Shown piece by piece: positions 34,073 through 37,000 of a stretch of 59,929 nt of DNA (positions are counted from its first letter, which is position 1; each line of letters opens with the position of its first letter). This DNA comes from Gammaproteobacteria bacterium (lineage in GTDB: Bacteria; Pseudomonadota; Gammaproteobacteria; QZLD01): contig QZLE01000201.1 in NCBI GenBank assembly GCA_004796365.1, forward strand, positions 1 through 59,929, given 5' to 3'. The translations under genes and the position numbers were made by a program. The notes under the pieces were generated by a model. That model had not been told where the DNA came from, made no database searches, and saw nothing but the letters and a program-made list of their open reading frames with translations.

Positions 34073-37000
34073 ATGAAAACAATATTCAACCTATTGCTAA
34101 ATGCGAGTATTATAATATCTGCCTTAACGCAACATGCCTTTGCTGCATCCTGGAAAGATATTTCCATTGCCAATTATAACGTGTCAATATACGTACCAGA
34201 CTTATCTAAGGGCCGTTCAACCCTTAGACCTCTAATGATAAACCTTCACGGCTGTGAACAAACCAGCCAAGACCTTGTTGATTACGGAAACTGGGGGAAA
34301 TCAGCTGACAAACACAATATGATTGTCGCTATCCCGGACAATCACGGCGACTGTTATGGCTATGATCCATCTCCTATTCCAGGCATTGAGCTGGCGCATG
34401 AATCTATACTTAATGTAATCAATGAACTAATCGAAGACCCTGCTCTTTATATTGACACCAACCAGATCTACATAAGCGGCTTAGGCGCAGGCGGCACAGT
34501 AGCTATGGAAATGGGCTGCAGATATCCTTATCTAATCGCTGGGATGGGGATCGCCTCTGCCGCATCTGCAGGTTCCAACCAAGCACTTCTTCAATACCTT
34601 TCATCTTTTACTCCAACAATGTCTGCTGATGAAGTAGCTACAGCATGCCTTGACTTTGCAGTAGACAAGACTGAACACTTCGACACTCAAATTGTTTCCA
34701 TTGTTTCTGGCGGTGATGGCACCAACAGCGATGGCAAGATCCACTCCAAATGGTCAACTATTTCAGCAGATGCATTCGCAAGCGTATATGGAATGGAAAG
34801 TGTATCCGGCGTAACCAGAATAGATGGTAATTCGTATGATGGAATTGAAGCTTTAGCTGTCGATAATAGTGGAAGTACCAGAATTTCAAGAATATTTGTT
34901 CCAGATATGGGATATGCGTGGTCAGCTGGAGATATTGGTTCTGACTCATCATTTACCTATTATGAAGACAAAGATATTGATGAACATGGGATAAATTATC
35001 CTGAGTATCTAACTTCTTATTTACAAACCAATAATCTCAAAATAAACCAAAACGATGGTGGTTGGAGCAAACCTTTTATCGGCGAAAAAATATACATCAA
35101 TACCACAAATCCAGAATGTCACCGGGTTTTTGGTAGCGCATACGATTTCAATGGCGAAATACTCTCAGTCACAGTTACAATTAATGGCTCACAGTACGAG
35201 ACCAAACTAGATGAAACATCACTAAGATTTGATGTAAATGAGTGTCTGGCAATAAGTGAAACCACACCAGTTTATGCAACGGCAACAGATAATGATGGCG
35301 CTATACGATCATTCATTCCCCAAAAGACTTTTTTGACTAACCATGCCAATAGCGATGCCAGCATAATCTCTGTGCATGCAGAAAAAGACGAAGTCGGTTG
35401 TGTAACGCTATCTGGTATAGCATCCTCAAATAACTGGAGTCCACCTCAGATAGTAATAAATATTGAGGATAATTTATATGTTGCCGATGAGGTTATTCAA
35501 ACTGAAACTGGATTCGAGTTCAATTCCAAAATATGTCCGGTAAATATGTTTGAATTTATCCTGAATCATGGAACTGTTATTGCAATTGATCAAAGCCAGA
35601 TTGAAAGCCTGCCGTATACATTCGAAGTTGAGTCACAACACGGTAATAATACTAACGCAACAGTAGAGCTAAAAATTACAGAATTATACGAGAAAGGTGG
35701 ATGTATTATTGCTGAGTTATATACGTCTGTAGAAGCCACTCCTGAGGTATACCTACAAGAAAAACAGCAAGAATTAGAGTTTCTGGGCAGTAACCAGTTC
35801 TATAAATTCTACCACATGAACAGATGCGAGCTGGAAGAAGACACTTATACCATCTTTGCCAAAGCTTTAGATAACTATGGGAACACAGTTATTCAGACTG
35901 AAACAAAAAATATCCAGGTTAATGAAAGTAATGCTCTACCAACTGCTCATTTTTCTTTCAAAGTTTCCACATTAACTCCGCATAATACGATTTGCTTTGA
36001 GGCCAAAGGAATAGCAATTGATCCTGACGGAATGATCAATGCCATTTCAATGACTGCAATAGGACAGAGTCAACCAGCAACCTTCGAACAACTTAGCGAG
36101 CATGCTGTTCAATTCTCAGCTAAATCATGTTTTGAAGTCGATGCAGTAGCGCATTCATATGGCTACAGCTACGATATTTCTTTATTAGTTGAAGATAACA
36201 AAGGGGCTGTGGCTGAATATAATGACATTATCTTGCATGTTGACCCAGCATTTCCAAATTTAGCTCCAGTTATTACAGAACTAACAACAAAAACTGATGA
36301 AAATAACTGCATAAATATTGAAGGGATGGCTTCAGATGATGATGGAGTTGTAGCATTTGTTAGCGTTATTATTAACGATGAATCATTTGAGGCGGATGTT
36401 CAGCACTACCAATCAATATCTTATAAATACAGCTTTTCAAAATGCGGCTATATCCCTGGTGAATACAATATTGCTGTTGCAGCCTTTGATAATTATGGAG
36501 ACTCAAGTAACATACAAACAGATATCGTTACTGTTAAAGATATCGACACCGACAACGACGGCATAGGAAATCTTCAAGATCCTGATGATGATAATGATGG
36601 GGTTGACGATGAACACGACACCTTTCCGCTAAACAGAAATGAGTCAAAAGATACCGATCATGACGGCATTGGCAACAACGCAGATAACGATGATGATAAC
36701 GACGGTGTTCTAGATATTAATGACGATTTCCCACTAGATCCTTCGGAAACAACTGATACCGATAATGATGGCATCGGCAACAATGCAGACACTGACGACG
36801 ATGGTGATGGCGTTCTAGATTTTGATGATGCCTTCCCACTTGATCCTTATGAAACAACTGATACTGACAAAGACGGAATTGGCAACAATACCGATACTGA
36901 CGATGACGGTGACGGAGTCGCAGACTCTGAAGATGCATACCCACTTGACCCTAAAAAATCACAGCTTGAGCCAAAACCTGAGCCAAAACCTGAGCCAAAA

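Follow-up and report, generated by a model that had tools for sequence, protein, structure and literature searches.

Can a bacterium keep a domain built like a secreted polyester hydrolase after the residues that perform the hydrolysis have been lost, and if so, what does the protein do? This question is raised by a gene in a 59,929-nucleotide stretch of gammaproteobacterial DNA (hereafter the window; QZLE01000201.1, assembly GCA_004796365.1), which forms contig C112 in a metagenome-assembled genome (MAG) of 2.77 Mb and 83% completeness. The gene (P0001; positions 34073..37171, + strand, as are all of its features given below) is a complete coding sequence of 1032 amino acids plus stop, without frameshift or internal stop, and its product carries an N-terminal head that resembles the type-1 extracellular depolymerases of poly(3-hydroxybutyrate) (PHB). 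We analyzed the gene together with three genomes of the same genus (G001, G002 and G003). In our reading, to which we assign a probability of roughly 0.55, the product is a stalk protein with a dead PHB-depolymerase head that serves as a surface-displayed, non-catalytic polyester-binding adhesin.

Results

The head lacks the nucleophile and the base of the catalytic triad

A HMMER search against the PDB aligned residues 38–288 of the window protein with LtPHBase, the PHB depolymerase of Lihuaxuella thermophila (8daj_A). The triad of LtPHBase is Ser121/His270/Asp197 and its oxyanion motif is HGCXQ (PMC9601781); the motif is defined for the catalytic domain of type-1 depolymerases of short-chain-length polyhydroxyalkanoates (dPHAscl) in PMC2666664 and PMC9601781. 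In the pairing, GLSAGG of LtPHBase stands opposite GLGAGG and MGHAWSGG opposite MGYAWSAG, with Gly138 aligned to Ser121 and Tyr281 to His270. Because the triad of LtPHBase is published, this alignment identifies Gly138 and Tyr281 as the nucleophile and base positions, respectively. Gly138 is encoded by GGC (34484..34486) at the nucleophile elbow, where the family's GLSxGG has become GLGAGG (context ISGLGAGG), and Tyr281 is encoded by TAT (34913..34915) at the catalytic His position, where the family's G-H-A-W has become G-Y-A-W (context DMGYAWS). The triad acid is kept as Asp220 (GAT, 34730..34732), in a column that is invariant across the family in our alignments A1 and A3, and the oxyanion-hole motif LHGCEQ (residues 58–63; 34244..34261) is intact and fits the HGCXQ consensus (PMC9601781). 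The initial annotation of this stretch had described a PHB-depolymerase-like domain with both Ser and His replaced in a gene whose LHGC motif, signal peptide, anchor and frame were intact. Re-reading of the codons and the alignment to 8daj_A bear out both replacements, and the frame is open over 1032 codons with the named features kept. With Ser changed to Gly and His to Tyr, the head as read from its codons is predicted to be unable to hydrolyze esters by the Ser-His-Asp mechanism.

The codons indicate how far the two positions have moved. The annotation had placed GGC one base from the Ser codon AGC, which is correct as arithmetic but does not describe the family, in which the nucleophile Ser is encoded by TCN (14 Ser-bearing copies from these genomes were examined; 13 have TCN and one has AGT). 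Gly138 is thus most likely two mutational steps from the family Ser codon, and the natural intermediate, Ala (GCT), is still present in one member of the clade described below. Together, the TCN codon and the Ala intermediate speak for an old substitution rather than an artifact of sequencing. The Tyr281 codon is, as had been claimed, one base from CAT, a single transition from the usual His codon of the family.

To determine how unusual these states are among relatives, we drew on a full HMMER search of 1.84 billion representative proteins, which returned 1226 relatives, and counted residues in the best 150 of them. Among 158 aligned domains the nucleophile Ser persists in 151, and the catalytic His persists in 148 of 150; the window copy is the sole entry lacking both. 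Of the 27 sites with ≥90% conservation among canonical relatives, the window head keeps 23, the misses being S138, S139, P164 and H281. Judged from these aligned residues, the damage to the window copy affects the two catalytic residues, with the rest lying in the segment directly behind the nucleophile elbow, and is not scattered over the fold. Sporadic losses are also seen elsewhere in the expanded family, namely in L077:6940-8520 of G001, which has LGGC and GLFSGG (oxyanion His to Gly and Ser to Phe), and in L088:3252-4580 of G003, which has GNAW (His to Asn); each lies within a tandem array of otherwise canonical paralogues.

The head falls in a mostly Ser-less clade that contains orthologues under purifying selection

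The window head belongs to a five-member clade (support 100/99) of which four members are Ser-less. The remaining members are C168 and C2 from the same genome, C55 of G002 and a contig of the ENA assembly ERZ1644700 (NODE_665). C168 retains Ser and His, its oxyanion His being changed to Arg. The other three, C2:12821-15991, G002:C55 (JAWSVC010000023.1) and ERZ1644700 NODE_665, adjoin metH in three genomes and have flanking genes that are 70–90% identical; because of this shared adjacency and the identity of the flanks we treat the trio as orthologues. Their nucleophile codons are Gly GGG, Gly GGG and Ala GCT, respectively. The oxyanion His has also been lost (LKEC, LKEC and LKGC) and the catalytic His is kept in all three. 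The head is the best-conserved part of these proteins, with 47–51% identity compared to 29–32% in the remainder, and Nei-Gojobori (NG86) dN/dS values for the head are 0.16–0.28, which represent upper-bound indications only as dS is saturated in these pairwise comparisons. Over their full length these metH-linked proteins (C2:12821-15991 compared to L029 and L060) share only 32–35% identity, and outside the head they evolve very fast.

The low dN/dS of Ser-less orthologues in which the head is the most conserved part argues that the Ser-less head is kept by selection; by these sequence measures, purifying selection has demonstrably preserved it through speciation in the sister orthologues. The selected heads of the trio are, at the level of codon comparison, our strongest evidence for a non-catalytic function of such heads. 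Changes specific to the clade surround the former active site (W95Y/F/L, F155I, A162S, P164A and P284S). The window copy groups with the Ser-less trio (support 82/75), and one shared loss of Ser is the favored, but not proven, interpretation of the tree. The annotation had spoken of two independent active-site losses. This holds insofar as the losses appear separate in time, but the Ser loss is old and probably shared, and the change of His to Tyr is specific to this copy and based on a consensus sequence. The further suggestion of a pseudo-enzyme as opposed to random decay is strengthened by the four Ser-less members among five, by the syntenic trio under purifying selection and by the 23 retained positions. 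Orthologue alignment with dN/dS, which had been named as a check, was carried out on the sister trio, where it gave the Ser-less heads and the values reported above.

In the full HMMER search no relative of the window protein exceeded 44% identity. Scans of collections of genome contigs and metagenome contigs with the single protein found no close orthologue, and scans with the clade alignment gave no further clade member.

The head retains the fold of PHB depolymerases

The head (residues 25–330; 34145..35062) is a type-1 PHB-depolymerase-like α/β-hydrolase domain that is predicted to be non-catalytic. It passes the cut-off of Pfam PF10503 (28.4 bits, cut-off 23) and falls below those of NCBIfam NF050058, the model for type-1 e-dPHAscl (96.9 bits, cut-off 150), and TIGR01840 (87.3 bits, cut-off 107.85). 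An AlphaFold2 model of residues 1–335 has a pLDDT of 83 and a pTM of 0.85, and the best Foldseek matches to the modeled head are 8DAJ (top) and 9BYU (E 5e-19, TMt 0.78). The model thus confirms, as a prediction, that an α/β-hydrolase fold like that of the solved PHB depolymerases is kept in the head.

The head belongs to the PHB-depolymerase esterase superfamily as a homologue and not as an equivalog. The C-terminal 700 residues of the protein consist of Ig-like modules, thrombospondin type-3 (TSP3) repeats, a Pro-rich spacer and a sorting tail. The protein should not be filed as a PHB depolymerase, since two catalytic features are absent together with the linker and substrate-binding domain (SBD) architecture. 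An SBD-like module of this genome, 'H.AGRA…C', which is present in the canonical depolymerase-type protein on C62 and in neighboring S8 peptidases, had no match in the window protein.

Architecture, export and anchoring

A promoter-like site, TTGACA-17-CAAAAT, lies 64 bp 5' of the ATG (33981..34009); a consensus scan gave 10 of 12 matches, and the site is a pattern match alone. The reading frame begins with a Sec signal peptide, read from the sequence as residues 1–24 (…TQHAFA|ASW; 34073..34144), and all paralogues have a hydrophobic leader ending in A-x-A at this position. Following the head are five Ig-like modules of ~100 residues, assigned by sequence (residues ~335–815; 35075..36517), which give weak Pfam matches to Big_7, DUF7480 and Big_15. 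Each contains a Cys pair (349/391, 443/488, 544/585, 641/686 and 746/791) and a terminal [AV]xDNxG motif. The next region (residues 822–960; 36536..36952) is composed of TSP3 Ca-binding DxDxDG repeats (PF02412, 25.1 bits, cut-off 25, three stretches), with eight DxDxDG motifs between residues 825 and 950 and PDB matches to COMP and thrombospondin. A Pro-rich (EP/KP)n spacer (residues 961–1004; 36953..37084), which shows low-complexity matches to the linkers of PARP, TonB and SslE, leads to the C-terminal tail (37085..37168). The tail is GlyGly-CTERM-like and is made up of TSDGGGG, the 16-residue hydrophobic stretch APNAFILLFCLLSLLI and TKRKH at the stop.

The tripartite tail at the extreme C-terminus, combined with an N-terminal A-x-A signal peptide, gives the protein the GlyGly-CTERM form, and all complete clade members have the same architecture with a GGGG-hydrophobic-basic tail. 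A regular expression for the tail matches eight ORFs in the genome, about seven of them convincing. The GlyGly-CTERM model TIGR03501 is reached by three other ORFs of the genome, and the tail of clade member P0003 scores 14.7 against the cut-off of 15.5. The genome encodes a rhombosortase (TIGR03902; C164:16972-17442, 145.2 bits, cut-off 84) and, ~3 kb from that gene, the type II secretion system (T2SS) secretin gspD (C164:20617-22368, 586 bits, cut-off 351). GlyGly-CTERM tails are processed by rhombosortase and their passengers are retained at the surface after type II secretion, as for VesB (PMC3237569, PMC6219818). The composition of the window tail makes it likely that it belongs to this signal class, though it lies below the formal HMM threshold. 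We had considered that the anchor might be exclusive to dead heads, but the GlyGly-CTERM-like tails found on canonical paralogues of G002 and G003 contradict this.

Genomic setting and host

In G001, G002 and G003 the surrounding sensor kinase, ung and S8-peptidase array are conserved, and the first peptidase gene is the immediate neighbor of ung. Alignment of the flanking intergenic regions gave no clear insertion signature. A conserved linkage of the gene to the two S8 peptidases downstream was considered and rejected, as the ung-S8 array of the three congeners lacks the gene and the C-terminal modules of the peptidases recur in >25 other ORFs. The two tandem peptidase genes (37307-40414 and 40800-43946) encode long tails in which Ig-like domains are combined with Cys-bounded 'H.(S/T)AGRA…C' modules. 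The tails share 30–65% identity with those of >25 other secreted ORFs, among them the canonical depolymerase-type C62:5513-9208, and look like a shared secretome cassette, whose modules we take to resemble the SBDs of PHB depolymerases. The window also contains very large ORFs at 8949-16148 (- strand, 2399 residues), 44541-50804 (- strand, 2087 residues) and 23254-27435 (- strand, 1393 residues).

The window genome has 16 PF10503 matches and the three congeners, each of ~3 Mb, have 15–23. Two congeners were deposited as 'Gammaproteobacteria bacterium PJM12_PHB_gam1' and 'gam2', G002 being gam2. A deep-sea bioplastic study described uncultured lineages with >10 secreted PHA depolymerases per genome (PMC10817984), and the naming of the records and the style of the BioProject suggest that the congener MAGs derive from that work. 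These features mark the host as a specialist of PHB surfaces whose depolymerase family is much enlarged. Several canonical paralogues end in Trp-rich tails (C19:19931-22024; L082, L084 and L085 in G002; L072 in G001; L087 in G003), examples of which are IWTYWLKWLKNFWKF, YWTAWLNWWKSFWSF and FDWTSMWSSWSWF; these tails may bind polymer or membrane. Another class of paralogue, of ~440 residues, ends in PSWCVYIPAAYWHYVPACAAGL, and in C138:20635-22959, L076 (G001) and L089 (G003) two complete and canonical catalytic domains are found in tandem in one protein.

Discussion

Our data suggest the following model for the window protein. It would be exported by the Sec pathway through its N-terminal signal peptide and retained in the inner membrane by the Gly-rich, hydrophobic and basic tail until cleavage by rhombosortase and lipid modification, after which it would reach the cell surface through the T2SS. 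The head would stand off from the cell on the five Ig-like modules, the Ca-binding TSP3 repeats and the Pro-rich spacer. The head, with its fold, oxyanion motif and acid residue, could bind polyester chains or PHB surfaces without cutting them and so anchor the cell to a polymer that is degraded by many catalytically intact secreted paralogues. We infer surface display, PHB binding and an adhesive role, the binding of PHB on the grounds of ancestry, preserved cleft motifs and habitat. Such a reuse for polyester binding or adhesion would fit both the architecture and the PHB-plastisphere ecology of the genus. A literature search found no paper on catalytically dead extracellular PHB-depolymerase homologues or on their use as adhesins.

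Several observations weigh against the adhesin model. Tyr281 is read from the MAG consensus; searches for sequencing runs with 1-kb and 9-kb queries listed no run, and an exact-protein look-up of the 1032-residue protein gave no match. The window tail gave no match to the TIGR03501 HMM at E values up to 10 (cut-off 15.5 bits), and the GlyGly-CTERM-like tails on canonical G002 and G003 paralogues mean that anchoring is not specific to dead heads. The grouping of the window copy with the trio is indecisive, as the alternative in which it is sister to C168 has a p-AU of 0.255. The window gene is a lineage-specific paralogue without a counterpart at the ung-S8 site of the three congeners. A word-based search of 5.8 billion clustered proteins returned the own-genome paralogue only, and in all collections searched the closest relative is 46% identical. 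The selection estimates given above are those of the sister trio. Finally, no other member of the clade has a terminal branch as long as that of the window copy (0.89 compared to 0.51–0.67).

Part of this evidence could also be produced by drift. The gene would then be a lineage-specific paralogue inactivated not long ago, first by loss of Ser and later by loss of His, in which stops and frameshifts have yet to appear. One copy would be dispensable in a genome with ~16 depolymerase-type domains, and the long branch, the absence of the gene from the syntenic locus of the congeners and the sporadic single catalytic losses in L077 and L088 are all in line with such a course. We nevertheless regard it as unlikely. 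The host DNA is 38–40% GC, for which we estimate from base composition that ~6–7% of random codons would be stops, yet 1032 codons are open, and no damage is seen in the signal peptide, the five Cys pairs, the eight DxDxDG motifs or the tail. These features, with the promoter-like site and a head whose four departures from 27 conserved positions include both catalytic residues, argue indirectly against decay, and the Ser-less state is under purifying selection in the sister orthologues.

The retained fold might alternatively serve another ligand, with the non-catalytic head acting as a sensor or receptor of 3HB oligomers or binding a surface or matrix component or a partner enzyme, and the protein being a general biofilm or cohesion adhesin. 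The clade-specific changes near the former active site would suit a changed ligand, the TSP3 region gives a sub-threshold match to MtsC, a protein of cell cohesion (NF047638, E 5e-16), and the binding module 'H.AGRA…C' that is widespread in the genome is not matched in the protein. Against this, polyester is the ligand that requires the fewest assumptions, given that the head descends from PHB depolymerases, has kept the oxyanion motif and the acid, and belongs to a host from the PHB plastisphere; we consider another ligand quite improbable. Still an enzyme, by a non-canonical mechanism or other residues, is what the protein would be in a further explanation, or Tyr281 would be an error of the MAG consensus and the protein only Ser-less. 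Asp220 and LHGC are kept, and Tyr, which is known from the consensus alone, is one transition from CAT. However, Gly at the elbow removes the nucleophile that would form the acyl-enzyme, and the nearby Ser135 occupies a position that varies between S, T, A and G in the family. Sequencing error cannot explain the Ser loss, as Gly lies two steps from TCN and Ser-less states are found independently in assemblies from other samples. Residual catalysis or a consensus error thus seems very improbable.

Beyond the single protein, we tentatively propose, as a possibility that we hold with less than even confidence, that the clade represents a small undescribed family of rhombosortase-anchored 'polyester lectins', in which selected dead heads on Ig/TSP3 stalks hold uncultured marine PHB-plastisphere Gammaproteobacteria on PHA, the window copy being the most extreme member. 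Surveys of plastic degradation count PF10503 or ESTHER 'Esterase_phb' matches as PHA depolymerases (e.g. PMC10817984). The clade indicates that some such matches are probably catalytically dead, and counts of depolymerases in plastisphere genomes would therefore overstate enzymatic capacity. Should the heads indeed bind polyester, they would represent the first case in nature of non-catalytic PHB-binding modules that arose from the catalytic domain instead of a classical SBD, and a bacterial counterpart of the α/β-hydrolase-fold adhesion molecules of animals. Modules of this kind would help to explain the attachment of plastisphere specialists to their substrate and might provide affinity tags or anchors for PHA materials.

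Comparison with known systems

The closest known proteins are the type-1 extracellular depolymerases of short-chain-length PHA (PHB), represented by LtPHBase (8DAJ). With these the window protein shares a signal peptide, the α/β-hydrolase fold, HGCxQ placed N-terminal to the elbow, the G-x-x-x-G-G elbow geometry, the triad Asp and the G-x-A-W loop, and the type-1 depolymerases of PF10503, NF050058 and TIGR01840 together with 8DAJ are the best sequence and structural match of its head. Unlike them, it has Gly in place of the nucleophile Ser and Tyr in place of the catalytic His, both of its NCBIfam scores are below cut-off, and where they have a linker and SBD it carries five Ig-like modules and TSP3 repeats, followed by the Pro-rich spacer and the sorting tail. 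The metH-linked Ser-less sisters belong to the same clade and have the same architecture and tail, with Ser likewise replaced by Gly or Ala. They differ in having kept the catalytic His and lost the oxyanion His, with two of them lacking the Gly of the motif as well (LKEC/LKGC), whereas the window copy keeps LHGC and has lost the catalytic His, and head identity between them is 40–43%. In its sorting signals the protein is like rhombosortase substrates such as the surface-retained T2SS protease VesB, which combine a signal peptide with a C-terminus made up of a Gly-rich motif, a hydrophobic helix and a cluster of basic residues, and as in those systems rhombosortase and T2SS genes are encoded in the host genome. 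Unlike those substrates, its tail is below the TIGR03501 cut-off and its passenger is a predicted dead enzyme domain where most others are active enzymes.

The principle of a dead hydrolase used for adhesion is known from the cholinesterase-like adhesion molecules (neuroligins, gliotactin and neurotactin), which are α/β-hydrolase-fold pseudo-enzymes. In the neuroligins the nucleophile Ser has been lost (to Gly) and the fold is kept as a surface-displayed binding head, of the same superfold as the window head. These molecules differ in being eukaryotic, in belonging to another α/β-hydrolase family and in having protein ligands, so that the likeness is an analogy of principle, with homology limited to the superfold.

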